Position numbers and translations under genes: made by a program
Source of the DNA: Candidatus Poribacteria bacterium
GTDB taxonomy: Bacteria; Poribacteria; WGA-4E; WGA-3G
Direction: 5' to 3'
Assembly (NCBI GenBank): GCA_965205015.1
Contig: OZ242029.1
Span: 3,392,001-3,456,000, forward strand
DNA: 64,000 nt
The notes under the pieces: model-generated
What the model was told of the DNA's origin: nothing
The model's input: only the letters and a program-made list of their open reading frames with translations
Databases searched by the model: none
Shown: positions 20,355-61,712 of the stretch, piece by piece
Layout of the letters: the number at the start of each line of letters is the position of its first letter
Position numbering within the stretch: the first letter of the stretch is position 1

Positions 20355-20954
20355 TTATGGCTGTGTGGCACGTTGGGAGACGACTTGATCAACGAGGCCG
20401 TATTCAAGCGCCTGTTCCGCAGTCAGGTAATAGTCCCGGTCGGCATCAGTCGCGATCTTCTCAACATCTTGGCCCGTATGCGCTGCTAAAATAGAGTAAA
20501 GTCGGTCCCTTTCCTGCAGAATCTCTTTTGCATGGATGCTAATATCAGAGGCTTGACCGCCAATGCCACTCGCCATCGGTTGGTGAATGAGTGCTTTGGC
20601 ATGTGGTAGCGCGTAGCGCTTTCCAGGGGCTCCAGCGGCGAGAAGGATAGCGCCCATACTATAAGCTCTCCCTAAACACCAGGTCTGCACATCCGCTTTG
20701 ATGTATTGCATCGTGTCGTATATTGCCAAACCGGCGGAAACGGAACCACCGGGTGTGTTAATATAGAGCACTATATCTGCATCCGGGTCCTTCCCCTCAA
20801 GGAAAAGCATCTGTGCCGTTACAATATTGGCGATGATATCATCATCGATCGGTGTGCCGATCATGATAATTCGATCTTCAAGTAGACGAGAATAGATATC
20901 GTATGAGCGTTCGCCTCGGCTGGTTTGTTCAACGACGATAGGTACAAGGTTCAT
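20355..20954 (-). CDS. clpP: Clp protease proteolytic subunit
   Basis: [22 protein letters not shown] (Ser), IHQP, DRDYY. Confidence 0.97.
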
Positions 20955-21075
20955 AGTTTTTTAGTTATCAGTTATCGGTTAACAGTTATCAGTTAACTGC
21001 TGGTGGCAGTTACGGTTTCCATATCCATCAATCACTTTAACTGACAACTAACGCCTGACGACCGACAACCATTCT

Positions 21076-22380
21076 TCAGGTAATTATGAGCGACTGCTTG
21101 GCGGATGCCCGGTTAATCAGGAACTGATAAATTTTCTCGTGTTGTAATTGTCCTCGAAAATCCTCTAATCGGTTGCTTGACTTTAGCAGAGAAGCATATT
21201 TTTGTGCGTCTCGATTTTGTTGTTCTGCAGCGCGTCGAATCTCGGATTCTAATTCGTCATCGGATACAGAAATGCCTTCCTTCTCAGCAATTGTCTCGAA
21301 AATCCATGACTGTTTTGTTTGTTGAATAACGTCTCGACGTAACTCGTCGGGCAGGGTATCCATGTTAATCCCAGCATCTTCAGGACTTCTCTGCTCATTT
21401 GCCAGTTGTTGTTTGACGTTCTGAAGCGTTTGTTGTACATATTGATCGACTAACGGTTCTGGGATGGTAATCTCGATTTTTTCGATGAGTTGCTCCAGCA
21501 ATTCTACCTTCTGCTTATCAACATGTAGACTTGTTTCTTCCTCAACAAGATTATTCCATATCAACCCATAAAGGTGGGTGTAGCTTTCATAGCCAAGGTC
21601 TTTGGCAAACTCGTCATCTAAGGGTGGAAGTTGTTTTTGCGTAATAGCGTGCAGCGTTATTTCGTATTGCGCGGATTTGCCTGCGAGTTCAACGACGCTA
21701 TGATCTGGTGGAAATTCGATATCCACGTTATTTGTATTCCCGATCTCCATTCCGATTAACGCCTGCTCAAGTTTTTCGTGTATAGCCCCAACGCCGAGTT
21801 CTATATCGACATCTTGCCGCGATTCAGCATCAATTCGATTTTCGTCGAGTAAGCATTCCCAATCTATCCGAACACAGTCATTTTCTTGGACTGGACGTTC
21901 AACGTCAAGCGGTTCATAAGTTGCAGATTGTGCTTGCAATCGCGTGATATAGGCATCAACATCTTCCCGGGGCACGTTAACAGGATTTTTATCGGTTACG
22001 AGTTCATCATAACTCGGGAGGCTGATAGTGGGTCGGATATCTACAGTGGCTGAGAACGTGAAAGGTTCATTTTCTTTGATTTGTAGTTCATTAAGTGGCG
22101 GTGTGAAGGTGGGTTGCGTCAGAGGATTGAGTCGCTCGTTATAGATTGCATCTTCGTAGGCGGGAGCGACAAGATACCGAACGGCTTCACTGTTGACGTA
22201 CTCAGGAAATCGTGATTTGAGGATTGCTATCGGGACACGCCCTCTCCGGAACCCCGGAATAGAGACTTGGGTCCGTAACGACTCACAAGTTTCCGCCAAT
22301 GCTGTGTTGACATCTTCAGCAGGAATTTCTATGTCCAAACGGACTCTCGTGGGGTCTAACCTTTCAATTTGAACTTTCAA
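21076..22380 (-). CDS. tig: Trigger factor (TTG start)
   Basis: IPGFRRGRVP ribosome-binding motif, FP.D....LAGK, LPPLDDEFAK; lies directly upstream of clpP. Confidence 0.93.
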   Translation of the reverse strand: MKVQIERLDPTRVRLDIEIPAEDVNTALAETCESLRTQVSIPGFRRGRVPIAILKSRFPEYVNSEAVRYLVAPAYEDAIYNERLNPLTQPTFTPPLNELQIKENEPFTFSATVDIRPTISLPSYDELVTDKNPVNVPREDVDAYITRLQAQSATYEPLDVERPVQENDCVRIDWECLLDENRIDAESRQDVDIELGVGAIHEKLEQALIGMEIGNTNNVDIEFPPDHSVVELAGKSAQYEITLHAITQKQLPPLDDEFAKDLGYESYTHLYGLIWNNLVEEETSLHVDKQKVELLEQLIEKIEITIPEPLVDQYVQQTLQNVKQQLANEQRSPEDAGINMDTLPDELRRDVIQQTKQSWIFETIAEKEGISVSDDELESEIRRAAEQQNRDAQKYASLLKSSNRLEDFRGQLQHEKIYQFLINRASAKQSLIIT

Positions 22381-22479
22381 TTTTTTAATTGTTCCTTGCG
22401 GTTCGATTGGAGGCAAAACGGAATTTGACGTTCTTTTTGATAGTGCTGAAGAAACACCCAAGCAAAACTTTTACGATGA

Positions 22480-22564
22480 TGGGCGAGGAGGGACTTGAAC
22501 CCTCACGAGGCGTAACCCCAATAGATCCTAAGTCTATCCTGTCTACCAATTCCAGCACCCGCCC
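22480..22564 (-). tRNA. tRNA-Leu(TAG)
   Basis: GGGCGGGTGCTGGAATTGGTAGACA..CT-TAG-GA, long variable arm, GGTTCAAGTCC. Confidence 0.95.
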
Positions 22565-22588
22565 GAACGTGCTTTAAGGCACTCAAGA

Positions 22589-22661
22589 TGCGCCGTGAAG
22601 GAATCGAACCTTCAACCGCCTGATTAAGAGTCAGATGCTCTGCCAATTGAGCTAACGGCGC
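22589..22661 (-). tRNA. tRNA-Lys(CTT)
   Basis: GCGCCGTTAGCTCAATTGG..CTGACT-CTT-AATCAG..GGTTCGATTCC. Confidence 0.95.
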
Positions 22662-22769
22662 GCCTGTTCCCACTGCGAAGCATTTCTTTCTGACCGTAGA
22701 CGCTCTAAGGACCACTCGCTAATTGTTAGGTGCACTTTCAAAGCGCACACCCGGCACCCAAAAAATATC

Positions 22770-22842
22770 CGCGTCCGGAGGGATTCGAACCCCCAACTTA
22801 TAGTTCCGAAGACTATTGCTCTATCCATTGAACTACGGACGC
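22770..22842 (-). tRNA. tRNA-Arg(TCG)
   Basis: GCGTCCGTAGTTCAATGGATAGAGC..CT-TCG-GA..GGTTCGAATCC. Confidence 0.95.
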
Positions 22843-22850
22843 ATATTAAA

Positions 22851-22923
22851 GGTGGATGATGGGATTTGAACCCACGCCCACTTGATCCACAGTCAAGTGC
22901 TCTACCCCTGAGCTACATCCACC
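22851..22923 (-). tRNA. tRNA-His(GTG)
   Basis: G-1 is encoded; GGTGGATGTAGCTCAG..CT-GTG-GA..GGTTCAAATCC. Confidence 0.95.
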
Positions 22924-22956
22924 ATGCTTCGATTTTTCATCGAGCTGTCTGAAAAG

Positions 22957-23030
<74 letters not shown>

Positions 23031-23058
23031 TCGTGCTATGAATTTTGATCGTTTCTGA

Positions 23059-23134
<76 letters not shown>

Positions 23135-23557: not shown

Positions 23558-24859
23558 ATGCGCTTAATTGAAGGGATATCCATTGGAATCTCCGCAATTC
23601 GTTCAAATAAAATGCGCTCGCTGCTGACGATGCTTGGTATTATCATCGGTATCGCGGCCGTGCTGGCAATGATCGCTATCGGGGATGGGGCTAAGCAAAT
23701 TGTGATAGAAGATGCAAAAAAAATGGGAGGGGCAACCCGAATCACACTCTACCAGACCTCCTACAAACGAGAAAATAACAGATGGGTGCGTATTCGTAGC
23801 AACGAATACATGGAATATGAAGATGTATTGGCGATTGAGGCAGAATGCCCATCTGTGAGTGCTGTCACACCGAGAATTGCGGATTGGAGGGGGGTTCTGT
23901 TTCAGGGTCCGGGCGGCACGGAAGCCCGCGCTGGTTATAACGGCGTAAATGCTACCTATACAACCGCAATGGATTGGGATATTAAGGCGGGACGCTTCAT
24001 TACAGACGAAGATGTCCAAAACGCAACAAAAATCTGTGTGCTCGGAGACGAATTAGCAACCGAGTTATTCGGCAATGCATCCCCTTTAGGACAAGAAATC
24101 AAAATTGCCAGAGATGTCCGATATTACGATCCGTGGGGCAGAAGACGGCGAGACAGATTGACCGAACGTTTCACGGTTGTGGGTACACTCATGCCGAGAG
24201 GTACGAGTTTCCAGTTTGGGTGGACTTACGATAACATCGCCTTTATCCCTGTGTCAACCGTCCAAGAACGTTTCACCGGCGACGACCAGGTTCGGAATAT
24301 TATGGTCTTCGCGAATAACGTTGACGATGTTCCCAAAGCGATCGAAGAGGTGAAGACAGTCATCAGAAAACGGCACAGAAACCAAGATGAATTCGTCAGA
24401 ATCTTTGAAATGCGTGCGGGTATGGCACAATTACAGAAAATCAGTAAGATGATCAAGATCGCATTGGGGAGTATCGCAGGCTTCTCACTGCTCGTCGGCG
24501 GTATCGGCATTATGAATATGATGTTAGTCGCTGTCACGGAGCGAACCCGTGAAATTGGGCTTCGAAAGGCACTCGGTGCCAAATCCTTAGATATCTTGGC
24601 TCAATTTCTCATAGAGGCAGTGATCATGTGTGCTGTCGCTGGGGCAATCGGTATCGGTTTGGGTATCTTTGCTGGTGAAGGTATGGCAATGCTTGCTGTT
24701 AAAATCGCCAAAATTGTTCCCGAATGGCCCTCGGTTGTTTCTATGCAGTGGGTCATGATTTCTGTATCATTCTCCGCGGCAATTGGTATATTTTTTGGCA
24801 TGTATCCTGCAATCAAAGCTTCCAGCCTTCCACCGGTTGAAGCATTACGCAAAGAATAA
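23558..24859 (+). CDS. MacB/FtsX-like ABC permease (no ATPase domain)
   Basis: NKMRSLLTMLGIIIG, GGIGIMNMML..VTERTREIGLRKALGA, FFGMYPA; AGGAGG RBS. Confidence 0.92.
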   Translation: MRLIEGISIGISAIRSNKMRSLLTMLGIIIGIAAVLAMIAIGDGAKQIVIEDAKKMGGATRITLYQTSYKRENNRWVRIRSNEYMEYEDVLAIEAECPSVSAVTPRIADWRGVLFQGPGGTEARAGYNGVNATYTTAMDWDIKAGRFITDEDVQNATKICVLGDELATELFGNASPLGQEIKIARDVRYYDPWGRRRRDRLTERFTVVGTLMPRGTSFQFGWTYDNIAFIPVSTVQERFTGDDQVRNIMVFANNVDDVPKAIEEVKTVIRKRHRNQDEFVRIFEMRAGMAQLQKISKMIKIALGSIAGFSLLVGGIGIMNMMLVAVTERTREIGLRKALGAKSLDILAQFLIEAVIMCAVAGAIGIGLGIFAGEGMAMLAVKIAKIVPEWPSVVSMQWVMISVSFSAAIGIFFGMYPAIKASSLPPVEALRKE

Positions 24860-24862
24860 AGT

Positions 24863-25115
24863 AATATGCGGGCAGGCACAAGACCTGCCTCTACAATAAT
24901 ATGCGGGCAGGCACAAGACCTGCCCCTACAATAATATGCGGGCAGGCACAAGACCTGCCCCTACAATATGCGGGCAGGCACAAGACCTAGGGAAACACCC
25001 AAGCAAAAACCCCCTACAATGTCTTTTTGCTTTGATGAAGATTAATTTTTTAATTCGGTAATATGCGGGCAGGCACAAGACCTGGGGAAACACCCAAGCA
25101 AAAATCCCCTACAAT
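24863..25115 (-). repeat. Tandem GTAG-family REP array (5 copies of GTAGGGGCAGGTCTTGTGCCTGCCCGC); two copies are interrupted by a GGGAAACACCCAAGCAAAA module
   Basis: aatatgcgggcaggcacaagacctgcccctac repeats with a 32-35 nt period in the first four copies and no unique spacers. Confidence 0.85.
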
Positions 25116-25375
25116 GTCTTTTTTGGGATAGGATTACCGAAATATTTATTTAAACTTCATGGAAGTGCGCCTTTCCTCATTAAAATTTTCAATCCCTATT
25201 TCCCAACCAACAAACAATAAACCTATTTGACTTAATTGCGTCTAAATTCTATAGGTGCTATAATTTGGCAATCACTTGGATAAAAAAGAAATTGCTACGA
25301 AAAAATCGAACTTTATTCCCCCTTTTTTGTCTAACGCATTAAGGTTAGGAATACTTTAGAATCTGGAGGCATGAA

Positions 25376-28009: not shown

Positions 28010-28145
28010 GTTATTTCATTAGTTATCAGTTATCAGTTATCAGTTATCGGTTGTCAGTCTACAAGAGGTCTTCGGATTACCAAAACCCTCTTTTAACTGA
28101 TAACTGACGGCTGACGGCTGACGACTCCTATAGGAGGAATTACCC

Positions 28146-36983: not shown

Positions 36984-37012
36984 TTGACAAAAAGCCCGAA
37001 AACGACTATACT
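36984..37012 (+). promoter_or_regulatory. sigma70 promoter
   Basis: TTGACA-17 nt-TATACT immediately before the leader RNA. Confidence 0.8.
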
Positions 37013-37017
37013 ATCTC

Positions 37018-37100
37018 TATCGCGTTGGCAGACATATCGAGCGTAGGCGCTTGGAAACCACGTGTCTGCCTCCCACTCGATAGGGGATAAAAGCGTGATG
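37018..37100 (+). ncRNA. Pseudoknotted 5' leader RNA, copy 1
   Basis: P0 ATCGCGTT/AGCGTGAT, P1 GGCAGACA/TGTCTGCC, bulge TATCGAG pairing with CTCGATA; covaries with the copy at 57990-58072. Confidence 0.75.
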
Positions 37101-37114
37101 GCGTGAGGTTTCCC

Positions 37115-37525
37115 ATGAAAGCGATTTTTCTTTTTTCAATACTATTGTGTGGTATCGCGCTTCCGGTACTCGGTGAAACTTCCGAGAATGCTATTGAAAC
37201 GGACATTGCAGTCATAAAAACAGAAATTAAAAATCTAAATGAAAAGATTGACAGCAAATTTGAGGGCATTAACAACAAATTTGAGAGCATCGAAAAGAAT
37301 TTTGACAGACAAAATAACACCATCATCATCGCTTGCATCGGTATACCTTTGGGGATTCTTGCAATATGTGTAACTGTGTGGGGCATATTCGTAAACAGAC
37401 GAAGGCCTAACGTCAACGAACAGCGGGAACAGATTGAACAACTCATACGCGACCAAGAACAAAAAATCGAAGCACTTACCCAAGAAATCGAAGCACTCAA
37501 ACAACAACGAACCGTCACTCCATAA
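37115..37525 (+). CDS. Small membrane protein with coiled coils
   Basis: Signal peptide, heptad repeats (IDSKFEGINNKFESI), one TM helix, C-terminal coiled coil. Confidence 0.75.
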   Translation: MKAIFLFSILLCGIALPVLGETSENAIETDIAVIKTEIKNLNEKIDSKFEGINNKFESIEKNFDRQNNTIIIACIGIPLGILAICVTVWGIFVNRRRPNVNEQREQIEQLIRDQEQKIEALTQEIEALKQQRTVTP

Positions 37526-37576
37526 CGCCTTGTTATTATGTTCACCGCCCCTATTTCGGAAGGAGAAAATTCCAGG

Positions 37577-40546
37577 ATGAAGAGCACGTTGTTAGCGATT
37601 ATTTTGACCCTACTTTTTGTTTCAACCCTTTATCTACCCAACACCTTTGCCCAAGATTCCCCGCAATGGAACTTGCCAGAGGGTGCCAAAGCCCGTTTAG
37701 GCATAGTCAAAGGTCGTTTAACTGGGATAGCGTATTCCCCGGATGGCAGTCGGCTTGCGGTGGGAAGTAGCGTCGGTGTTTGGATGTATGATGCGCGAAC
37801 CGGTGCGGAAGGGACACTGATTGGCGGATACACCGATTGGGTCTATAGTGTTGCGTTTAGTCCCGATGGAAACACGCTCGCAGGTGGGGGTAGAGACTAT
37901 GCAGAGACTACACTGTTCGGTGTTCGGTTATGGGACCCAGAAACTGGAAACATCAGAAACATACTCACGGGACACACCGACCAGGTCCATAGTGTTGCGT
38001 TTAGTCCCAATGGCACCACGCTCGCAACTGGGGGTAGAGACCACACTGTTCGGCTATGGGACCCAGCAACGGGAAACAGCATAAATACACTCACGGGACA
38101 CACCGACCAGGTCCATAGTGTTGCGTTTAGTCCCAATGGAAATACGCTCGCAACTGGGGGTAGAGACCACACTGTTCGGCTATGGGACCCAGCAACGGGA
38201 AACAGCATAAATACACTCACGGGACACACCGACTTTGTCAATAGTATAGCGTTTAGTCCCAATGGAAATACGCTCGCAAGTGCGAGTAATGGGGAAGTGC
38301 GGTTATGGGACCTAGCAACGGGAAACAGCATAAACACACTTAGACACACCTCCTGGGTTTATAGTGTTGCGTTTAGTCCCGATGGCACCACGCTCGCAAG
38401 TGGGAGTGGCGACGAGACCGTACGGCTATGGGACACAGAAACAGGAAAACTCATAAACACACTCACCGAACACACCGACCTTGTTCGTAGTGTTGCGTTT
38501 AGCCCCGATGGCACCATGCTCGCAAGTGGGAGTGATGACAACACCATTCGGGTATGGGACCCAGAAACTGGAAACAGCATAAACACACTTAGACACACCA
38601 GGGGGGTCTATAGTGTCGCGTTTGGTCCCGATGGAAATACACTCGCAAGTGGGAGTCTCTCAGCAGAGGTGCGGCTATGGGACACAGAAACAAGAAACAG
38701 CATAAACACATTCACGGGACACACCAGGGAGGTCTATAGTGTCGCGTTTGGTCCCGATGGAAATACACTCGCAAGTGGGAGTGGCGACGAGACCGTTCGG
38801 ATATGGGACACAGAAACAGGAGACAGCATACATACACTCACAGGACACACCCAGGAGGTCTTTAGGGTCGCGTATAGTCCGAATGGCACCACACTCGCAA
38901 GTGGGAGTGGCGACAAGACCGTGCGGGTATGGGATACAGAAACAGGAGACAGCATACATACACTCACGGGACACACCAGGGGGGTCTATAGTGTCGCGTT
39001 TGGTCCCGATGGAAATACAATCGCAAGTACGGGTCTGGACAACACCGTTCGGGTATGGGACACAAAAACTGGAAACAGCATACATACACTCACAGGACGC
39101 ATCAACTTTTTCAAGAGTGTCGCGTTTAGCCCCGATGGAAACACACTCGCAGCTGGGGGTTACTCAGCAGAGGTATGGTTATGGGACACAGCTACAGGAA
39201 AACTCATAAACACACTCCTAATCCAGGGCTTTGTCAATAGTGTCGCGTATAGTCCAGATGGAAATACACTCGCAATTGGGCATGATGGTCGTAAGGGATG
39301 GGCCGTTGAGTTATGGGACACAAAAACTGGAAACAGCATACATACATTCGCGGGACAACACACCCGTGGGATCGCGAGTGTCGCGTATAGTCCGGATGGA
39401 AATACACTCGCAGCTGGGTATGGGGCCGGCACGATCCTTCTATGGGATGCCACACCTTACACCTTACAACCGTTCGCCGCTGAGACAGATAGCATAACAA
39501 AGGAGCCGGAGGTGCCTGTTGATGGAAATGTTGCGCGCGTGAGTCTCTCCCCCGCATCCGTATGGTCTGGGAATGTAGGGGATCAGTTGACGGTAAACAC
39601 CATCATCGCAGATGGCGTAGATGTTCGGGGATATCAGGTGGAACTCACTTTTGATACGGCTGCGTTGCGGTTCGACTCAGTTGCAGATGGTGGGTACCTG
39701 CCAGTGGATGCTTTCCAATTGGCACCTGTGGAGAACGGCAATCGCGTCACGGTTGGTGCGACATCGCTGCAAGCAAGCAGCGAAGGCGATGGGACACTTG
39801 CAGCGTTCACATTTGAAGTGCTGACTGCTTCGCCTGCGATGCCGACCTTATCCGATGTGAAACTGACTGACAGCGATGCAAACTTTTTAGCCGTACGGAT
39901 TGAGACCGAGGCGGGAACGGATCCCCCGCCCCTCGCTGGAGACGTAAACGAAGATGGTGTGGTGAGTCTTGAGGATTTGGAGGCGGCTGTGGCGCGTCGG
40001 GGGCAAACGGGTGAGAACACAGCGGATATGAACGGCGATGGTGTTGTGGATGCCGCGGATATCGTGTTAATCGCAGCAGCGATAGAAGCCGCGGCAGCCG
40101 CTCCATCCCTGCATCCATCAGTTATTATTGAAATGTTCACTGCAACAGAGGTGCGTCAGTGGCTGTCGTTTGCGCGGGCAGAGGGTCTCACAGGTCCGAT
40201 GTATCAGCGAGGCTTTCTGCTTCTGGAGCAACTCCTTGCGGTGCTAACGCCAGAGGAAACACTGCTCTTAGCGAACTATCCCAACCCGTTCAACCCGGAG
40301 ACGTGGATCCCATATCACCTCTCTGAACCTGCGGATGTCTGCATTTCGATTTATGCTGCGGACGGTCGCTTGGTTCGGGTGCTAACCTTAGGGCATCAGG
40401 GTGCGGGTATCTACGAGTCTCGTGGGCGTGCGGCGTATTGGGATGGTAGGAACGCCTTCGGGGAGCCTGTGGCAAGCGGTGTGTATTTCTATACGTTCAC
40501 CACAGGCGACTTCACGGCAACCCGGAAAATGCTCATCAGGAAGTAA
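37577..40546 (+). CDS. Secreted WD40-repeat protein with cohesin, dockerin and FlgD/T9SS-type C-terminal domains
   Basis: About 14 GHT..V.SVAFSPDG.TLASG..D.TVRLWD repeats; cohesin-like beta domain; DVNEDGVV/DMNGDGVV dockerin loops; LLANYPNPFNPETWIPY. Confidence 0.92.
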   Translation: MKSTLLAIILTLLFVSTLYLPNTFAQDSPQWNLPEGAKARLGIVKGRLTGIAYSPDGSRLAVGSSVGVWMYDARTGAEGTLIGGYTDWVYSVAFSPDGNTLAGGGRDYAETTLFGVRLWDPETGNIRNILTGHTDQVHSVAFSPNGTTLATGGRDHTVRLWDPATGNSINTLTGHTDQVHSVAFSPNGNTLATGGRDHTVRLWDPATGNSINTLTGHTDFVNSIAFSPNGNTLASASNGEVRLWDLATGNSINTLRHTSWVYSVAFSPDGTTLASGSGDETVRLWDTETGKLINTLTEHTDLVRSVAFSPDGTMLASGSDDNTIRVWDPETGNSINTLRHTRGVYSVAFGPDGNTLASGSLSAEVRLWDTETRNSINTFTGHTREVYSVAFGPDGNTLASGSGDETVRIWDTETGDSIHTLTGHTQEVFRVAYSPNGTTLASGSGDKTVRVWDTETGDSIHTLTGHTRGVYSVAFGPDGNTIASTGLDNTVRVWDTKTGNSIHTLTGRINFFKSVAFSPDGNTLAAGGYSAEVWLWDTATGKLINTLLIQGFVNSVAYSPDGNTLAIGHDGRKGWAVELWDTKTGNSIHTFAGQHTRGIASVAYSPDGNTLAAGYGAGTILLWDATPYTLQPFAAETDSITKEPEVPVDGNVARVSLSPASVWSGNVGDQLTVNTIIADGVDVRGYQVELTFDTAALRFDSVADGGYLPVDAFQLAPVENGNRVTVGATSLQASSEGDGTLAAFTFEVLTASPAMPTLSDVKLTDSDANFLAVRIETEAGTDPPPLAGDVNEDGVVSLEDLEAAVARRGQTGENTADMNGDGVVDAADIVLIAAAIEAAAAAPSLHPSVIIEMFTATEVRQWLSFARAEGLTGPMYQRGFLLLEQLLAVLTPEETLLLANYPNPFNPETWIPYHLSEPADVCISIYAADGRLVRVLTLGHQGAGIYESRGRAAYWDGRNAFGEPVASGVYFYTFTTGDFTATRKMLIRK

Positions 40547-42076: not shown

Positions 42077-42165
42077 AATTATTCTCCATTGTATAGTTGT
42101 CGGTTAAAAGAGGGTTTTGTTTAACGCAGTGTCTCTTTAAGTGACAATTGATAACTGATAACCAT

Positions 42166-42846
42166 TCAAAGCCATTCGTGCATTTCCCAGCCGGATGCGA
42201 GTGCCTTCTCACGAAGTGCTTTCCCCGGATTCACAACAACCGGATTCCCAACACATTCCAACATCGGTAGATCGGATTGACTGTCGCCGTAAGCGTAACT
42301 CTCTTCCAGTGAAATGCCGTGTTGCTCGGCATACGCTTGCACGGCTTTTGCCTTTTCCTCGCCAATGAGGGGTAGGGTTGTAAGTTTACCCGTGAACTGC
42401 CCGTTTTGTTCATGAAGTTGCGGTGCCAATACAGAATCAACAGCGAGATGGTTCGCTATCGGTTGGGCAATAAAATCGAGCGATCCGGTTACGAGAACTA
42501 TGGTTATGCCTTGCTCCTTGTGTTCCTGAATTTGGGACATCGCGGCAGGGAAGATCTTCGGACGAAGATACGTCTCGAACATTTCGGTAGCCAAGTCCTT
42601 AGTATCGGCAACACCCATCCCGCGGTAGTTACGATAAAACACCTCATTGAAACGGGGACGACTGACGCTGTCCAAAATTAGGTAGTAAACAATCTTTGGC
42701 AGAAACCCAACAAGCCACAAGTGTTTTAGGAGGAAGGGTATCTGGGCAGCGCGCATCCAGATGTAGTAATGTACAATCGTGGACTTCAATAAGGTGCCAT
42801 CCACATCAAAAAATGCAGCGGCTTTTTTCATGGTCGGATCCGACAT
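42166..42846 (-). CDS. HAD-IB family hydrolase (ElbB/SerB-like)
   Basis: FFDVDGTL, LVTGS, GEEKA, YAYGDS.SDLPML..VGNP. Confidence 0.92.
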   Translation of the reverse strand: MSDPTMKKAAAFFDVDGTLLKSTIVHYYIWMRAAQIPFLLKHLWLVGFLPKIVYYLILDSVSRPRFNEVFYRNYRGMGVADTKDLATEMFETYLRPKIFPAAMSQIQEHKEQGITIVLVTGSLDFIAQPIANHLAVDSVLAPQLHEQNGQFTGKLTTLPLIGEEKAKAVQAYAEQHGISLEESYAYGDSQSDLPMLECVGNPVVVNPGKALREKALASGWEMHEWL

Positions 42847-51514: not shown

Positions 51515-51613
51515 GAATGAAACGCAAGCCTGCAACAACGGAGCAGGCGACTCTTGAGGAAAGCAAGTCAAAGTTCTAACTCACGTTACTCATCCGCAAG
51601 GAAAATTAGAAAA

Positions 51614-52561
51614 ATGAAACGTCGGAACCCGATTGACATATCATCTGTGACAACCTATCCACTTCAGGACCGTGTTAGCAAGGTCTCCGTCCGCGATTTC
51701 GCGACGCTACCGGAATTAGAAGTAGACCTATCCCCATTTTTAGCAACGCTGCCGAACATCCTCAAAGGACAGGATTTTTTGGCACTCGTCGACGATATTG
51801 TTGGTGCCTATCAGAACAAAAAACCTGTCATCGTGATGATGGGCGGACATGTCATCAAATGCGGATTGAGTCCGTTCTTAATTGACTTAGCAAAGCGTGG
51901 CGTGGTTACTGGGTTCGCCTTTAACGGCGCAAGCAGCATTCACGATTTCGAGATCGCGCTTATTGGAGAGACCTCAGAGGATGTCGCTGTCTATCTACAG
52001 AGTGGTCAATTCGGGATGTGGGAGGAAACAGGACGCTTGATGAACGCAGCGACGCAGCACGCCGCAGATACAGGGATCGGAATGGGCGAAGCACTCGGCA
52101 GGCAACTGATTGAGCTGGACGCGCCCTATAACGCGTATAGTCTTCTGGCTTCCGCGGGTATCCGATGCGATGTCCCAATCACAGTGCATGTCGCGATCGG
52201 CACGGATATTATCCATCAGCATCCGTCTGCGAACGGCGCCGCTATCGGTGCCGCGAGTTTCACCGATTTCCGACTCTTAACGACGTTAGTGACGGATCTG
52301 GAAGGCGGTGGTGTTGTCTTGAATTTGGGTTCGGCGGTCATATTGCCTGAGGTGTTTCTGAAGGCGTTGACAATCGCCCGAAATTTAGGGCATACGGTGT
52401 CCCAGTTTACCGCCGCTAACTTCGACATGAATCAACAATACCGTCCCGTAGAGAATGTCGTCAAACGTCCAACAGAGACGGGCGGTAAAGGGTATACATT
52501 CACAGGACATCATGAGTTGATGATTCCGCTTTTAGTGCAAGCGGTTTTGTCTCGGTTGTAG
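51614..52561 (+). CDS. Conserved hypothetical protein (deoxyhypusine synthase-like fold)
   Basis: GGHVIKCGL, IHDFEIA..G.TSEDV, VHVAIGTDI, GSAVILPEVFLKAL, GHHELM. Confidence 0.75.
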   Translation: MKRRNPIDISSVTTYPLQDRVSKVSVRDFATLPELEVDLSPFLATLPNILKGQDFLALVDDIVGAYQNKKPVIVMMGGHVIKCGLSPFLIDLAKRGVVTGFAFNGASSIHDFEIALIGETSEDVAVYLQSGQFGMWEETGRLMNAATQHAADTGIGMGEALGRQLIELDAPYNAYSLLASAGIRCDVPITVHVAIGTDIIHQHPSANGAAIGAASFTDFRLLTTLVTDLEGGGVVLNLGSAVILPEVFLKALTIARNLGHTVSQFTAANFDMNQQYRPVENVVKRPTETGGKGYTFTGHHELMIPLLVQAVLSRL

Positions 52562-53018: not shown

Positions 53019-54434
53019 ATGACTTCAAATATTAAGCCCAAGACGATATTTACGGGTGATAATCTGCCTATCATGCGCGGGATGAACAGTGCATCGGTGG
53101 ATTTAATCTACCTTGACCCCCCTTTTAATAGCAATGCCAACTATGCAGCACCCATCGGTTCTGAGGCTGCAGGTGCTGAGTTCAAAGACACTTGGACGCT
53201 CCGAGATGTTGACATCGCATGGCTTGACCTCATTGAGGCAAAACATCCTGCCCTGAACCGAGTAATCCACGCTGCGATGACAAATAGTGATAAATCTTAC
53301 CTTGTTTACATGGCGGTTCGGTTGTTGGAGATGAAGCGTATTCTCAAGTCAACGGGTTCTATCTATCTGCATTGTGACCCTACTATGTCTCACTATTTAA
53401 AGCTCGTTATGGATGCTATTTTTGGCAAAGAGAACTATCGTGCGGAGATTATATGGAATAGACAGAGTTCTCATAACGATAAATTGTATGGTGCCACTCA
53501 TGAGACAATCTTCTACTATAGTTATGGTGAGAAAGCTATCCCTGATGAAGTACTAATTCCTTTAACTGATAAACGCAAAAAAAACTTTAATAAAAGCGAC
53601 AAACATGGCAAATATGAAGGTGATAATCTAACGGCTTCAGGGAGCAGTGGTGGAGAATCAGGACAACCTTGGCAAGGTATTTCTCCAGGAAATAGGCACT
53701 GGTCACCTCCACGGGTAGGTAGAGGTAGATATGCTGAATACATTGTTAAAAAATTCATTCCAAATTATGGGGAGATAGAAGGTGTGCATGCCCGTTTAGA
53801 TGCTTTAGATGAGGCAGGACTAATTTTTTGGAACAGTCGTGGAAATCCACGTCTCAAGCGTTATCTCACACCAGATGCTGGAATGCCTCCTCAAAGTCTT
53901 TGGAATGATATTTCATACGAAGAAGGTGAAGATACTGGTTATCCTACACAAAAACCTCTGGCACTCCTTGATCGCATCATCAAAGCATCATTAAGCAAAG
54001 ATGGGGTTGTTCTCGATCCGTTTTGTGGGTGTGCTACAACCCTTGTCGCAGCAGATAGGCTTCAACGTCATTGGATTGGTATTGACGTATCTGCCAAAGC
54101 CATTGAATTGGTTGTTGAACGTATCAAAGAGGATCAGGGCTTATTTCGGGACATCATCGCACGCACAGACATTCCAAAACGCACAGATTTAGGAGACATA
54201 TCCCCATACAACGCACCTGAAAACAAAACTCAGTTATATGGAGAACAAAGTGGATATTGTAATGGGTGTGGCACACATTTTCAGAAACAACACCTTGAAG
54301 TTGACCATATTATCGCAGAAAATGTTGGAGGAACTGACCATATTGAGAATCTTCAACTGCTTTGTAGTAACTGCAACAGAATTAAAGGTGACCGCGGGCA
54401 AGAATATCTTGTCTCAAGACTGAACAAAGATTGA
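53019..54434 (+). CDS. N6/N4 DNA methyltransferase fused to a C-terminal HNH endonuclease
   Basis: DLIYLDPPFNS, YPTQKP..LL.RII, DPFCGCAT; CNGC..EVDHI..GGTD..NLQLLC..CNR.K. Confidence 0.92.
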   Translation: MTSNIKPKTIFTGDNLPIMRGMNSASVDLIYLDPPFNSNANYAAPIGSEAAGAEFKDTWTLRDVDIAWLDLIEAKHPALNRVIHAAMTNSDKSYLVYMAVRLLEMKRILKSTGSIYLHCDPTMSHYLKLVMDAIFGKENYRAEIIWNRQSSHNDKLYGATHETIFYYSYGEKAIPDEVLIPLTDKRKKNFNKSDKHGKYEGDNLTASGSSGGESGQPWQGISPGNRHWSPPRVGRGRYAEYIVKKFIPNYGEIEGVHARLDALDEAGLIFWNSRGNPRLKRYLTPDAGMPPQSLWNDISYEEGEDTGYPTQKPLALLDRIIKASLSKDGVVLDPFCGCATTLVAADRLQRHWIGIDVSAKAIELVVERIKEDQGLFRDIIARTDIPKRTDLGDISPYNAPENKTQLYGEQSGYCNGCGTHFQKQHLEVDHIIAENVGGTDHIENLQLLCSNCNRIKGDRGQEYLVSRLNKD

Positions 54435-55574: not shown

Positions 55575-56302
55575 GTGCGTTTCAGCGAATAATGATGGAA
55601 TGTAAGTTCAATTCTTACTCGGTAAACCCAACATCCGCATATCTTACTCTAACTGCGTTGCTGGAAACAGCAAGGTGGAAAGCAAGAGGAAATGGCGCAT
55701 GTCTGCGGACAGAGGCGAAACTCATAAGAGCGTCCAAAAGTGACACGTCCGATAGAGGACGGACATGGATAAACGAAAGTTGAATATCCGTAAGCCTCGT
55801 TAGGATAGACATAGATACCGCCTTGAAAAACTATGGTATTCTAAGATACCTCTTTATAGTAGGTGTCTGAAAGTTGCTATTCAAGTCTTAGCAACTCTAT
55901 TGGGTTCATAGAATACAGGAGTGGGTGGTTTCCCACTGTATCGGGGTATAGGATACTTCTAAATCCGTCTGAGAAGTCTATCATTAGGGAGTTGAAAAGA
56001 ACCTAAGTAGACTCCCCGAGTCTATAAGGTTGAGGAGATTAGGTAGCGTCATTGACGCGAGCATAATCAGGTTGAGTGCTTTGAAACATTTCTGAAAACA
56101 TTTTATCTATAGTCTTGAAATCGTGTGAAAACATGCAGTCTATAGAAGTCGATGACTTATGAATAAGGAAGAAAGTAAAAGTGGTTATCATGACCTAAAG
56201 CGTTTATCGCCACACTCAACTGGAAGGTCTCCATGTGCGGTGAAAGTCGCACGCATGGTTTGGAGGGGGCTGTTAGAGGGCGACCTCTAATGGCTACCCT
56301 AC
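55575..56302 (+). ncRNA. ORF-less group II intron
   Basis: 5' GTGCG; domain V CCATGTGCGGTGAAAGTCGCACGCATGG; domain VI ending CCCTAC; loop TTCAAGTC (55880-55887) in stem AGTTGCTA/TAGCAACT is complementary to the ligated exons GACTTG|AA. Confidence 0.88.
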
Positions 56303-56315
56303 AAAGGAGGTCCCG

Positions 56316-56616
56316 ATGGAGGACCCAACGAAAACAAAGAACCTTCACCCCTGAGTTTAAAGGCCAAATTGTTCTTGAGGCACTTAGCGGTGAAACTTCG
56401 CAAGCGGAACTGGGTCGTCGACACAACCTGAGTGAAGATCAACTCTCGAAGTGGAAGCAGCAAGTCGTTGAAAACGTAGGATCTTTGTTTGCTTCCACAG
56501 AGCAGCAGTCCAGCGAGGCAGCTGAGCGGATCGCACACCTTGAACAGCTCGTTGGGCGGTTGACTGTGGCACTCGACATTCAAAAAAAAGCAGCGACGTG
56601 GTTAGACCAAAACTGA
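56316..56616 (+). pseudogene. IS3-family transposase OrfA (ATG out of frame with the HTH coding frame)
   Basis: AAAGGAGG RBS plus ATG at 56316 reaches TGA after 12 codons; the HTH is in another frame. Confidence 0.7.
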
Positions 56617-56757: not shown

Positions 56758-57978
56758 TTACATCTGCTCCACAGAGGGACCCAAGGCAGCCCTCAAGATG
56801 TTTATCGCAGCGTTTACGTCCCTATCGTGGTGTGAACCACACTCACGACACGTCCACTGCCGATCCGAAAGTGAAAGATTTTCGGTGTGATGCCCGCAAT
56901 CGGAGCAAGGTTTTGTAGTAGGCGTCCACTGCCCAACTTGAGAGAACTCACGATTATGTTTAAAACACTTGAACCTCAGTATCTCAACAAACTGGTAAAA
57001 AGCAAGGTCAGAGACTTTGCGTCCCCACAGACGTTTCATCCCATCAAGGTTCAGCGTCTCGGTGACAATGTGGTCAAACCGACGGCAGAGGTCGGTCGCA
57101 CGTTTGTAGTGCCAATCCCTGCGTTGGTTGGCGATCTTACGATAAAGCCGTGCGAGTTCACGGACAGCACGCCACCAATTGTTAGAACCTTTCTGCTTTC
57201 GGCTGACTGCCTTGTTAAGTTTTCGGAGTTGGTTCAAGGCGTTTTTCAAAGGTTGCGGATGGTGGATCTTCTCACCGGTGCTCAGGGTCAGATAGGTGTC
57301 CATACCGAAGTCTATCCCTACGCTCTTACCTGTAGCGGACATCACTTCTTTGGATTTACTATCTGTCACAACATAGAGCCACAATGTTCCGACAGCATCC
57401 TGACCGATTTGAATATACTTGACGTTCCCCTCCCACTCGCGATGGTGGTGATACAAGATATTTCTGCGGACAAACACAAACTTCTGTTTCTCTATATCCC
57501 ACTCTTTGAAGGAGAGACAGACAGTGCCTCTCGGAACTTTAGACGGTTTATCGTCATCCTTAGGGGGGACTTCAAAGACCTTGTACCCTGTTTGGAACTT
57601 CGCAGAGCGGTATTTGCTACGTTTTTTGAACTTCGGAGGTCCCACGCGCCTGCCACGTCTGCCGTTTTCAATCCAATCAAAGAACCGCTCATACCCGATA
57701 TGGATACGGATAATCACAGCGTCAAGCGTATCACGGGGGATCCATGCCCAATGCTTATGGGTGCGTTCGAGCAACTTCGTCAGATGCGGTTGCAGGCGAA
57801 AACGACCCGCGTATTTTCCATAGATACGGTAATATCGCTTCTCCAAAGCAAGGAAGTGGTTATGCACATCACCCAAGTCATCAAGCATGTTGCCGACGCG
57901 CATGTTTTGCGAGTGTTCGCGTATTTGGTATTTGTAGGTGCGACGCACACGCTTTTGTTTTCGCTTTCGTTTTTTCAT
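56758..57978 (-). CDS. tnpB: RNA-guided endonuclease TnpB
   Basis: TYKY HTH-like start, GIDFG (D), VTETL (E), CSDC/CREC zinc finger, DRDVNAA (D). Confidence 0.93.
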   Translation of the reverse strand: MKKRKRKQKRVRRTYKYQIREHSQNMRVGNMLDDLGDVHNHFLALEKRYYRIYGKYAGRFRLQPHLTKLLERTHKHWAWIPRDTLDAVIIRIHIGYERFFDWIENGRRGRRVGPPKFKKRSKYRSAKFQTGYKVFEVPPKDDDKPSKVPRGTVCLSFKEWDIEKQKFVFVRRNILYHHHREWEGNVKYIQIGQDAVGTLWLYVVTDSKSKEVMSATGKSVGIDFGMDTYLTLSTGEKIHHPQPLKNALNQLRKLNKAVSRKQKGSNNWWRAVRELARLYRKIANQRRDWHYKRATDLCRRFDHIVTETLNLDGMKRLWGRKVSDLAFYQFVEILRFKCFKHNREFSQVGQWTPTTKPCSDCGHHTENLSLSDRQWTCRECGSHHDRDVNAAINILRAALGPSVEQM

Positions 57979-57989
57979 AGGATGTCACG

Positions 57990-58072
57990 TATCACGCCTT
58001 TAACCCCTGATAAGTGGGTGGGACCGACACGTAACCTTGCGGTTACGCTTATCATGTCGGTCCAACGTGATA
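57990..58072 (-). ncRNA. Pseudoknotted 5' leader RNA, copy 2 (tnpB leader)
   Basis: TATCACGTT/GGCGTGATA, GGACCGACA/TGTCGGTCC, TGATAAG/CTTATCA pseudoknot, CGTAACC-GCAA-GGTTACG. Confidence 0.75.
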
Positions 58073-58077
58073 CATCT

Positions 58078-58106
58078 ATCAAACCATAATTTATTGAAAA
58101 TGTCAA
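58078..58106 (-). promoter_or_regulatory. sigma70-like promoter for the tnpB leader
   Basis: TTGACA-17 nt-TTTGAT with a TG extension. Confidence 0.55.
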
Positions 58107-58196: not shown

Positions 58197-58799
58197 TTGA
58201 TGAAATATGTGCGGTTGTTATTGATTCAATGTGTACTGCTTGTATTGGGATTGGTCGGTTATTGCATTGCTACTGAGATTGGCTTTGAAGCCGAAGACGC
58301 AGATGAAATTGTAGCAATCATGGAAATTTATGAAGATAAGAAAGCTTCAGGCGGTATGTATATATCGGCGGGAAAGGGCGGGGGAGGGCGCCACCCCGGT
58401 AAAGCCGATTTCGTGATTAACGTTAGAACACCCGGTCAGTACACGATGTGGGGGCGGGTGATTGCCCAAGATACGGCGAAGGACTCTTTCCATGTCACAG
58501 TCGATCAGAAGAAAAGTCCACAACCGGGTGATGCCAACATGATCTGGGATACAGGTCAGCATCAGGAGTGGACGTGGTCAAAAGTAAAATGGCGCGAAAA
58601 GAATCCGTTGACCTTTGATCTGAAACCGGGGAAACATACCGTTACATTTTGGTCTAGGGAAGGCGATACCCGTTTGGATGCCGTTTACATGGCAATAGAT
58701 CCCGGCGCTGTCCCCAAACTACCGAATGAAATTGAGGGTTTTGCTGTGCATCCCCGGAATCGCTTAACGACAACTTGGGCGGCGCTAAAAAATCGGTGA
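58197..58799 (+). CDS. Secreted carbohydrate-binding-like protein with C-terminal LTTTWAALK motif
   Basis: Signal peptide, FEAED, ASGG.YI, Y.MWGRV, DSF, GKHTV...RE..TRLD. Confidence 0.82.
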   Translation: MMKYVRLLLIQCVLLVLGLVGYCIATEIGFEAEDADEIVAIMEIYEDKKASGGMYISAGKGGGGRHPGKADFVINVRTPGQYTMWGRVIAQDTAKDSFHVTVDQKKSPQPGDANMIWDTGQHQEWTWSKVKWREKNPLTFDLKPGKHTVTFWSREGDTRLDAVYMAIDPGAVPKLPNEIEGFAVHPRNRLTTTWAALKNR

Positions 58800-60378: not shown

Positions 60379-60662
60379 TTCATTTATTTTTCATTTTTCG
60401 TTGGGACCAATATCTACACGCAAAAGATACTAATTGGAAAACATATAAGTAATTTTAGCGCACTTTATGCCATATATCAAGGGATTTTTGTTGATAAAAA
60501 CTGCGGGATCCTCTAAAATCTCAATAACAGTTGTCAGTTATCGGCAGTCAGTCTTTCTTCTTAGCCAAAGATCGCAAGCCTGAAACGTAGTGGAAGGCGA
60601 CTCTATGGAAATAACTATCAATGCTCAAACCGACTTCATTAAACCGCAAGGAAAATTAAAAA

Positions 60663-61712
60663 GTGTCTATACCACAACTGCCCGTTCCTTCACATTTCGA
60701 TGTTGATCAGGTGAGCCAAGTCTGGCGGATTCCGTATCAAGAACGCCAAGGTGAGGCACAGGCATGGGCACAGGAGCATGCAATCCGTCCCGCATTCGAG
60801 GATAACTTTCGGACCTGCTTGCTGCTTGTTGATGTCCAAAATACATTCTGTATCCCCGATTATGAGCTCTTCGTCGGGGGTAGGTCAGGAAATGGTGCGG
60901 TAGAAGACAATATCCGTTTGTGTCAATTTATCTATCGTAACCTCTCGCGTATCACCAAAATCGCTTGCACGCTGGACACACATACAGCGATGCAGATATT
61001 CCACGAGGTCTTCTGGATTAACGATGCCGGTGAGCACCCAGCCCCTCTACAGACACTGATGACACAGGCTGATATTGAGGCAGGCAAATGGCGCGTCAAT
61101 CCGGCTGTCGTCGGTAGTCTAAATCTCCCGCCCCAAGTTCCGGAATCCAATCCATACGCATGGTTAAAGGCGTACGGTGAACACTACGTTAAAACCCTCA
61201 CCGCCGATGGCAAGTATCCACTCGCGATATGGCCCTACCATGCAATGCTCGGCGGGATTGGGCATGCGGTTGTCTCTGCGGTTGACGAAGCCTGCTTTTT
61301 CCACGCCATCGCTCGCAGGACGCAAATACATTATGAGATCAAAGGGCAGAATCCATTGACTGAAAACTATTCCGTCTTGCGTCCGGAAGTCTTGGATGAT
61401 CCTGATGGAATGCCGATTGATCGAAAAAACAGTGCCTTTCTCCAAACGCTTCTCGGATACGACCGCGTAATTATCGCTGGACAGGCAAAGAGCCACTGTG
61501 TCGCTTGGACGGTTAGCGATCTGCTTACAGAAATTCAGCAAACGGACACGGAATTAGCCAAGAAAATCTATCTGGTAGAGGACCTGACTTCACCCGTTGT
61601 TGTGCCTGGGATCGTGGACTACACAGAACCTGCAGACGAAGTTTTCGCCAAGGTTTCAGATGCCGGAATGCACGTGGTGCAATCAACTGAACCGATTGAG
61701 CGTTGGACTTAG
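60663..61712 (+). CDS. Isochorismatase/nicotinamidase-like cysteine hydrolase
   Basis: LLLVDVQNTFC, TLDTH, IWPYH, KG, IAGQAKSHCV. Confidence 0.88.
   Translation: MSIPQLPVPSHFDVDQVSQVWRIPYQERQGEAQAWAQEHAIRPAFEDNFRTCLLLVDVQNTFCIPDYELFVGGRSGNGAVEDNIRLCQFIYRNLSRITKIACTLDTHTAMQIFHEVFWINDAGEHPAPLQTLMTQADIEAGKWRVNPAVVGSLNLPPQVPESNPYAWLKAYGEHYVKTLTADGKYPLAIWPYHAMLGGIGHAVVSAVDEACFFHAIARRTQIHYEIKGQNPLTENYSVLRPEVLDDPDGMPIDRKNSAFLQTLLGYDRVIIAGQAKSHCVAWTVSDLLTEIQQTDTELAKKIYLVEDLTSPVVVPGIVDYTEPADEVFAKVSDAGMHVVQSTEPIERWT

Follow-up and report, generated by a model that had tools for sequence, protein, structure and literature searches.

A covarying 5′ leader RNA with two alternative closing helices upstream of tnpB in Poribacteria

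Here we describe a leader RNA from a 64-kb stretch of a Candidatus Poribacteria genome (contig OZ242029.1, positions 3,392,001 to 3,456,000; 'the window' throughout, with position 1 as its first letter). The window holds two copies, copy A at 37018–37100 on the forward strand and copy B at 57990–58072 on the reverse strand, the second of which lies directly ahead of the transposon nuclease gene tnpB. Together with their homologues, these copies make up a real, abundant structured RNA family that we have not found described before. We favour, with rather more belief than doubt, the reading that this RNA is the structured 5′ leader of the tnpB messenger RNA in TnpB-only IS200/IS605 elements and serves there as a translational switch.

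Fold, covariation and host range of the leader

Both window segments were recovered, together with every pairing quoted for them in a preliminary description of this DNA (outer stem, second stem, 7-nt bulge and linkers). The outer stem (P1) is present in each copy, and the second stem has 8 bp in A and 9 bp in B, with a different sequence. Each copy has a 7-nt bulge and, further downstream, a 7-mer that forms its perfect complement (37035–37041 with 37076–37082 in A; 58054–58048 with 58014–58008 in B), the paired words differing between the copies. The linkers CCCA and GGGGWTAAA are common to A and B, and a CGTGA word is repeated ahead of both start codons, which lie 14 nt (A, ATG at 37115) and 11 nt (B, ATG at 57978) beyond the segment, in agreement with the reported spacing of 11–14 nt. 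In this architecture, P1 encloses two arms: a long arm (P2a, the 7-nt bulge and P2b) and a 3-bp P3, whose 7-nt loop pairs with the bulge.

Predicted fold energies for the 83-nt segments were −34 to −38 kcal/mol. Compared with shuffled sequences, this corresponds to z = −3.93 for copy A and −5.38 for copy B, with 0 of 200 shuffles equal or better. The joint motif CCCAC-N6-8-GGGGWTAAA was found twice in the window, against 0.00 expected from 100 shuffles. A chance resemblance of A and B was ruled out by the shuffled folds, by this motif count and by covariation among their homologues.

A pattern scan of metagenome contigs returned at least 117 stretches, of which an extended pattern confirmed 10 loci, with 6 distinct sequences, as true homologues, the rest being without the structure. 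The 6 distinct homologues and the 2 window copies were aligned (alignment A3) and converted into a covariance model, R1. The preliminary description had proposed that such a model be taken to related genomes, and R1 did find further homologues there: five Poribacteria genomes gave 54, 21, 26, 23 and 41 matches, and 78 of 150 sampled Poribacteria genomes were matched, many with at least 28 scored candidates, for roughly 1,000 matches overall. Within the window, R1 matched copies A and B only. The ClpX protein encoded in the window is 75–90% identical to its counterparts in 11 Poribacteria genomes. Outside Poribacteria, it matched 0 of 5, 0 of 151 and 0 of 151 genomes from other phyla (0 of 302 in two of these phyla). 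In the genomes searched, the family is specific to Poribacteria and tied to tnpB.

Covariation was scored in a larger alignment (A5) of 81 sequences, drawn from about 50 genomes and from metagenome contigs, which was fitted to the model, so that the statistics for the nested helices lean towards it. There, 98.6% of 2,689 cells were paired, compared with 27–46% when partners were slid by 1–3 columns; both sides change in 20 of the 34 pairs, and 0 of 500 shuffles reached the observed score. The long-range bulge–loop pairing stands outside the model's base pairs, and it too covaries, with both sides changing in 6 of its 7 pairs. Among the 81 sequences there are 42 distinct long-range words, and 77 of the 81 are perfect 7/7 complements; the two end pairs are almost invariant and the central five vary freely. 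The compensatory changes and the pseudoknot, both put forward earlier from two copies, are thus borne out by 81 sequences, and a structured RNA with pseudoknot-type long-range pairing is strongly supported by this comparison.

U–G is the majority state at two P1 positions (46 of 80 and 47 of 80 sequences). Taken as the reverse strand, copy A folds poorly (z = −1.83) and copy B folds well (z = −5.05). Because a U–G majority would mismatch on the other strand, and because copy A folds poorly as the reverse strand, we assign the structure to the sense RNA.

Two ideas about the inner domain were rejected. That the long-range word is set by the insertion site was ruled out by L200 and L205, where the same element at different loci shares one word. 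An upstream open reading frame (ORF) in the leader was dropped by eye: AUG arises only with G as the second bulge base, and the frame differs between sequences with 1-nt and 2-nt linkers. In some leaders of the class matched by R1 (class I), the apical loop of P2b is extended by an inserted GC-rich hairpin of about 25 nt (L236 and L251; R1 matches of 117–125 nt). Elsewhere in the window, a TTATCAG-type heptamer forms intergenic arrays (families D9 and D10) at 7339–7394, 20954–21002, 28012–28066, 42138–42170 and 60525–60554; a heptamer of this type is also among the commonest long-range words (6 of 81), a match that may be coincidence.

Comparison with Rfam 15 (4,227 models) gave no match at gathering score at either window copy, nor in 20 further loci covering all three of the leader classes set out below. 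At E ≤ 10, nothing was returned for copy A, and for copy B there was only a chance Histone3 match in the promoter region; the earlier statement that neither copy fits a classic riboswitch therefore holds even at this threshold. None of the Rfam riboswitch, ribozyme (including twister, pistol and hatchet), intron or IS605-orfB models matches the leader, and a known RNA family is ruled out for all Rfam 15 models. RF03065 (IS605-orfB-I, name and accession as in a passage of PMC11701678) gave 0 matches in a genome with 54 leader copies, a weak negative since it also gave 0 in every control genome. The absence of any Rfam match would extend to the Poribacteria-1 motif if, as is presumed, that motif is one of the 4,227 models. 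Full-text searches of the literature returned no paper under 'Poribacteria-1' and none joining Poribacteria with tnpB. No tnpB 5′ leader of this kind was found among the literature matches listed, and those passages of the TnpB survey PMC10691335 that match a term search contain no 5′ leader.

The leader within tnpB transposons

We intersected the coordinates of R1 matches by hand with those of matches to the TnpB TNB domain in four genomes. For 117 of the 125 matches listed (about 94%), the leader lay 1.0–1.15 kb upstream of a TNB domain on the same strand (44 of 47 in G001, 18 of 19 in G002, 21 of 22 in G004 and 34 of 37 in G005). This tabulation of downstream genes makes tnpB the dominant context, and the 117 copies precede tnpB inside elements with subterminal hairpins of the IS200/IS605 type, as expected from the suggestion that IS605 elements had spread the leader. 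Among the eight exceptions, tnpB is truncated in four (L236, L248, L249 and L252), L251 is degenerate, L234 and L250 precede a small membrane-protein gene, and the element of L235 was not located by text pattern.

L165, L175 and L202 likewise have a leader ahead of a small membrane-protein gene. At L165, the small gene is followed by an N6_N4 methylase–HNH fusion (Pfam), with DUF932 nearby, and because of these neighbours the small-gene context, which is rare, may itself be part of another mobile module. Copy A is assigned to this context because its small ORF resembles that of L165. Behind copy A, on the forward strand (37115–40546), lie a 136-aa membrane/coiled-coil ORF (37115–37525) and a 1,002-aa WD40 protein (37538–40546), while copy B is directly followed by tnpB (406 aa; 56758–57978, reverse strand; OrfB_IS605 9.2e-25, Cas12f1-like TNB 6.5e-20); both sets of downstream genes are as they had been described. 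Leader copies without tnpB keep the fold. The earlier suggestion that the leader controls tnpB and a host gene alike therefore stands for tnpB as the dominant context, but the host-gene context is rare and perhaps mobile in its own right, and cis-regulation is putative in both.

At L175 and L202, an ORF at the same position as the L165 methylase–HNH fusion has an N-terminus like that of the fusion. The window also encodes a DNA methylase (53019–54434, forward strand) whose C-terminus gives HNH-like matches to IscB and Cas9d models and which looks like the same kind of protein as the L165 fusion; the R1 search of the window found no leader before it.

The leader begins at a regular distance from a promoter. 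At a fixed register, the −35 word TTGACA or TTGACT is present in 54 of 81 sequences, and a −10 word, either TGG-TTTAAT (27 sequences) or of the TATAAT type, ends 5 nt before the first stem base; relatives of copy B have one or the other in the same register. Copy A has TTGACA-17-TATACT (36984–37012, forward strand; 11 of 12 positions matching), which stops 5 nt short of where the outer stem begins. For copy B (58078–58106, reverse strand), TTGACA (58106–58101) is followed after 17 nt by TTTGAT (58083–58078), a promoter that the scan did not call, so that the TTGACA-17 promoters previously claimed for both copies are firm for A and not for B. From promoter geometry alone, the transcript is predicted to start at the first base of P1. 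Covarying structure on the sense strand, at a fixed distance from promoter and ATG, is the profile of a structured cis-regulatory 5′ leader, for which a regulatory effect is predicted.

The insertion sequence that carries copy B extends on the reverse strand from about 58205 (left end) to about 56691 (right end). Similarity to other copies starts at 58203–58206 and stops at about 56691, contigs of relatives from RNA libraries break at 58205, and similar subterminal hairpins lie at both ends (58179–58160 on the left, 56719–56700 on the right). Similar subterminal hairpins at both ends are a hallmark of IS200/IS605. The leader sits about 133 nt inside the left end, and the right end is about 1.3 kb downstream. 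It is not a transposon end, because it is internal, between promoter and ATG, and the ends of the element carry matching hairpins of their own; a TnpA-bound subterminal hairpin is ruled out by these boundaries. Any other DNA-level element acting in place of an RNA, such as a transposase site or a REP-like repeat, has a negligible chance of being correct. It would suit a repeat with inverted termini inside an insertion sequence, and the good fold of copy B as the reverse strand, but beyond the position of the true ends it is opposed by the frequent U–G pairs, by a location fixed between promoter and ATG and by the occurrence of the same leader with different left ends.

The class I leader is in fact common to at least four left-end types and to seven TnpB clusters, which are 28–51% identical where aligned over at least 70% of their length; it is much better conserved than the TnpB lineages behind it. 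Elements with a tnpA–tnpB operon are without the leader. In these, an AAGG word lies in the short leader of tnpA, and the tnpB start codon overlaps the stop codon of tnpA (ATGA), which fits a leader that is needed only where tnpB is translated on its own. In RNA-library contigs from four runs, which carry neither start, end nor strand information, relatives of the element are covered over their whole length, the leader being a 77-letter variant in some.

The repeated P1 word was ruled out as a transposon target motif; the left-end flanks show a TCAT-like word. At about 20 loci (for example, window 58206–58210), the flanks are T-rich and then read TCAT(C) in most copies, a word that probably serves the elements as target or TAM. 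A match to group II intron domain V/VI (56222–56302, forward strand; 48.3 bits) is situated some 390 nt past the right end of the tnpB element and overlaps the start of an HTH_Tnp_1 ORF (56233–56616); it is a separate feature outside the element.

A duplicated closing strand at the start codon

The CGTGA repeat is present as reported, but what had been treated as a detail proved to be central to the likely mechanism: it is a second tandem copy (copy 2) of the 3′ strand of P1, repeated with a period of 7. Although not among the base pairs of the model, copy 2 covaries with the P1 5′ strand, with 89.7% of 640 cells paired against 20–52% when slid and both sides changing in 6 of 8 pairs. In six core variants, the 5′ strand, copy 1 and copy 2 are all altered in concert. 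Because the 3′ strand is duplicated, and because two further leader classes repeat the design, we recognize two mutually exclusive closing helices: P1, in which the 5′ strand pairs with copy 1, and P1′, in which it pairs with copy 2. P1′ is all Watson–Crick, whereas P1 carries two U–G pairs.

In copy A (forward strand), the P1 5′ strand, also able to form P1′, occupies 37018–37026. It is followed by the P2 arm (37027–37070), made up of P2a (37027–37034/37063–37070), the bulge (37035–37041) and the P2b hairpin (37042–37062), which is atypical in having a 3-nt insertion. The P3 hairpin (37072–37086) pairs CCC (37072–37074) with GGG (37084–37086) and holds the long-range 3′ strand (37076–37082) in its loop. 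An A-rich junction (37087–37091) leads into copy 1 (37092–37100; junction and copy 1 together 37087–37100) and then copy 2 (37101–37108), which overlaps a GAGG Shine–Dalgarno-like word (37105–37108) and precedes the ATG at 37115 (copy 2 to start codon, 37101–37117). The leader of copy B (57983–58072, reverse strand) has the same parts: the 5′ strand (58072–58064), P2a (58063–58055/58029–58021), bulge (58054–58048), P2b (58047–58030), P3 (58018–58016/58006–58004) with the loop word (58014–58008), junction (58003–57999), copy 1 (57998–57990) and copy 2 (57990–57983).

Those tnpB genes of G001 that R1 missed carry two other leader classes, II and III. Class II keeps the P1 words and has a different inner domain, in which an 8-bp bulge–loop pairing covaries. 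Class III is unrelated in sequence throughout: two hairpins with complementary 7-nt loops lie inside P1, there is no A-rich junction, and the P1 3′ strand is again present twice, 10 nt apart. In the class III variant L269, the 5′ strand and both copies change together. Classes II and III alike thus have a 5′ strand, a bulge–loop or loop–loop pairing and a duplicated 3′ strand, and these three parts covary. The P3 stem never varies in class I (CCC/GGG); class II has CCG/CGG there, and class III has CCU/AGG. Whether it arose anew or was retained, the design is therefore found in three classes of sequence. A crude test for exact 6-mers was passed by 1 of 19 usable tnpB loci of another phylum compared with 23 of 44 from Poribacteria, in a small sample with naively assigned start codons. 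The element was also searched for a third P1 word, as for 5′–3′ circularization or pairing with the guide RNA, and no consistent extra site was found.

In 58 of 73 sequences, 4 nt separate the end of copy 2 from the ATG; in 72 of 73, the distance is 3–7 nt. A canonical Shine–Dalgarno (SD) tetramer is present in 2 of 73 leaders, against about half of the other window genes listed. The 3′ tail of 16S ribosomal RNA (16S) in a related genome reads GGAUCACCUCCUUUCU; complementarity to this tail is found in class I (GUGAU with AUCAC) and in class III (AAGG with CCUU), and the 5′ strands resemble the tail.

We propose a leader with three working parts, in which the 5′ strand would act as sequestor, copy 2 as ribosome-binding word and copy 1 as decoy. 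Transcription would begin from a sigma-70-type promoter, at a start predicted to be the first base of the outer helix. With P1 formed, copy 2 and about 12 nt before the ATG would be single-stranded and translation could start; with P1′ formed, an 8-bp helix about 4 nt from the ATG, at the site of the SD duplex, would block binding of the 30S subunit. We infer that the balance between P1 and P1′ sets translation of tnpB. Candidate triggers would be the order of folding as the RNA is transcribed, conditions such as Mg2+ or temperature, and binding of a protein or ligand; a specific ligand is rated below folding order, general conditions or a protein because the classes share no junction bases. 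The leader may occasionally be reused before a small membrane-protein gene, as in copy A.

In favour of this switch, the two closing helices are close in energy. Several points weigh against it. The computed ground state differs between the classes: by nearest-neighbour figures that exclude the long-range pairing, P1 is favoured by 2–4 kcal/mol in most class I leaders tested and by about 1–5 kcal/mol in most class II leaders tested, and P1′ is favoured by 3–5 kcal/mol in class III. The covariation of copy 2 may reflect its identity to copy 1 and not pairing with the 5′ strand, two effects that sequence cannot fully separate, although at one position copy 1 is mostly G or A and copy 2 is A, both pairing with the same U. 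The CACGA variant has only 3 bp of complementarity to 16S. L230, the only copy in its genome (G119), has a single P1 3′ strand, 5 nt from the ATG. By reasoning only, full 7-bp pairing of a bulge without linkers would be sterically tight and is doubtful; the central five long-range pairs may be the only ones to form, or the long-range pairing may alternate with other helices. Finally, what the RNA-library contigs show is the occurrence of relatives of the element in such libraries. The tnpB gene of L230 looks intact (413 aa), and this locus offers a natural test case for the switch model.

The same energies bear on a kinetic timer, in which P1 would form first and allow a brief burst of translation before refolding to P1′ silenced the message, giving a low TnpB dose tied to nascent transcripts. 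Copy 1 is transcribed before copy 2, the copy 2 helix is all Watson–Crick against two U–G pairs in P1, P1′ is the more stable helix in class III by 3–5 kcal/mol, and a 7-nt register shift would require near-complete melting of P1, which should present a high barrier. A computed ground state of P1 in most class I and II leaders tested argues the other way, and we regard such a timer as possible but unlikely. The hok mRNA and the 5′ UTR (untranslated region) of the MS2 maturation gene are leaders that work out of equilibrium; as in these, folding order could hypothetically open a short translation window here, but they are not known to have a tandem duplicated strand.

The layout, with P1 competing against a helix that sequesters the start region, is also that of translational riboswitches, of which the add adenine, preQ1-II and SAM-II riboswitches, with their P1/anti-SD platforms, are known examples. 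A small-molecule or ion riboswitch would make the pseudoknotted domain an aptamer whose ligand locks P1, with P1′ as expression platform. The junction bases invariant in class I (GG/CC at the base of P2, the CCC-A and G-GGG words, the UAAA junction and the tandem U–G pairs) would suit a binding site, and closure of a compact pseudoknot domain by P1 would compete with occlusion of the start region as it does in those RNAs. Unlike them, the leader has no known ligand, no pocket conserved across its three classes and no Rfam riboswitch match. Junction bases differ between the classes despite their common design, class III is without the A-rich junction and a common pocket is not evident; moreover, the genes regulated, for a transposon nuclease and a small membrane protein, point to no metabolite. 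A riboswitch is thus distinctly unlikely.

The conservation of the leader, far above that of the seven TnpB clusters, could be due to a shared trans factor. TnpB itself, an RNA-binding protein that recognizes pseudoknotted guide-RNA scaffolds, or else a host factor might bind the domain and repress translation or trap the initiation complex, as in the leaders of ribosomal-protein genes. We consider a protein operator of this kind improbable: by eye only, no resemblance is seen between the leader and the guide-RNA region at the 3′ end of its element, TnpBs that are 28% identical are unlikely to share one operator, the fold is kept in copies without tnpB, and an operator alone does not explain the duplicated strand.

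The predicted +1 base begins a helix, the fold is very stable (−34 to −38 kcal/mol per 83 nt) and copy 2 is partly complementary to 16S, all of which would fit a passive stabilizer or insulator against 5′-end-dependent decay, with copy 2 as a weak ribosome-binding word. Such a role would need neither the long-range pairing nor, in three unrelated classes, a 5′ strand complementary to the ribosome-binding word; the six coordinated three-way changes are hard to explain without P1′, and we give a stabilizer little credence. Lower still stands a self-cleaving ribozyme, or an RNase processing signal, that trims the 5′ end of the tnpB transcript. Mobile elements often carry small pseudoknotted ribozymes, the leader has a conserved sequence at many helix positions, and the duplicated strand might, speculatively, supply alternative substrate helices, but no Rfam ribozyme model matches at E ≤ 10, no core is conserved across classes and the RNA lies at the predicted transcript start, with nothing upstream to remove; a ribozyme or processing signal is very improbable.

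The translational switch that we favour has relatives among insertion sequences. A stem–loop in the 5′ UTR of IS200 tnpA hides the ribosome-binding site, and IS10 RNA-IN is subject to fold-back inhibition. As in these, leader structure would here limit translation of an IS gene by pairing of the ribosome-binding region. Unlike these, the gene is tnpB and not a transposase gene, the domain is a pseudoknotted RNA of about 90 nt, no antisense RNA is implied, and the sequestering strand has a built-in decoy in the duplicated 3′ strand. The TnpB guide RNA (omega RNA or reRNA) and IS605-orfB-I are likewise structured pseudoknot RNAs from this class of element; however, the guide RNA comes from the 3′ end of tnpB, runs into the right end and extends to a guide outside the element, whereas the leader is at the 5′ end, upstream of the ATG. 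A role of the leader as omega RNA or reRNA is ruled out by its position between promoter and tnpB ATG, about 133 nt inside the left end. IStrons, in which a group I intron is fused to an IS605-family tnpB, share with it a structured RNA on the 5′ side of tnpB in an IS200/IS605 relative, but the leader is about 90 nt long, has no group I features and matches no Rfam intron model. We would place the system under leader control of IS genes with a riboswitch-like expression platform, unusual in its built-in decoy strand and its almost freely changing complementary word.

That word invites a further idea, to which we attach a low probability. The leader may be a new class of regulatory RNA, gating an RNA-guided nuclease across about 1,000 transposon copies by a three-part switch of sequestor, decoy and ribosome site. 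The word might then be a lineage-specific address, through which transcripts of one insertion-sequence lineage would pair in trans, loop to bulge, tipping the switch OFF as copy number rises.

Other window features and significance of the leader

A second recurrent leader of about 100 nt precedes at least seven unrelated genes of the window, including those for xylonate dehydratase and trigger factor. It lies at 2193–2287, 4628–4687, 4785–4828, 6246–6305, 51526–51617 and 60576–60663 on the forward strand and at 22360–22500 on the reverse strand. It has a GC hairpin, and the word CCGCAAGG stands unchanged at about 12 nt ahead of the ATG; no Rfam family matches it. Six tRNA genes are clustered at 22480–23134 (reverse strand), and tandem units of about 35 nt with a GC hairpin (D7, D17) occupy 24857–25124 (forward strand).

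TnpB is the ancestor of Cas12, is encoded by one of the most abundant prokaryotic genes and is a compact genome-editing tool; to our knowledge, control of tnpB expression in native transposons has been little explored. The family described here is well defined and rich in covariation, about 90 nt long and simple in its proposed switch design. Its evolution is unusual, in that the leader is conserved above seven TnpB lineages and one internal pairing word changes almost freely. If the switch is real, it would be a natural, portable module for TnpB dosing with a rare decoy strand as its expression platform. If transcripts also pair in trans, the variability of the word would not be neutral drift, and the system would sense copy number much as kissing loops do in the control of plasmid replication.

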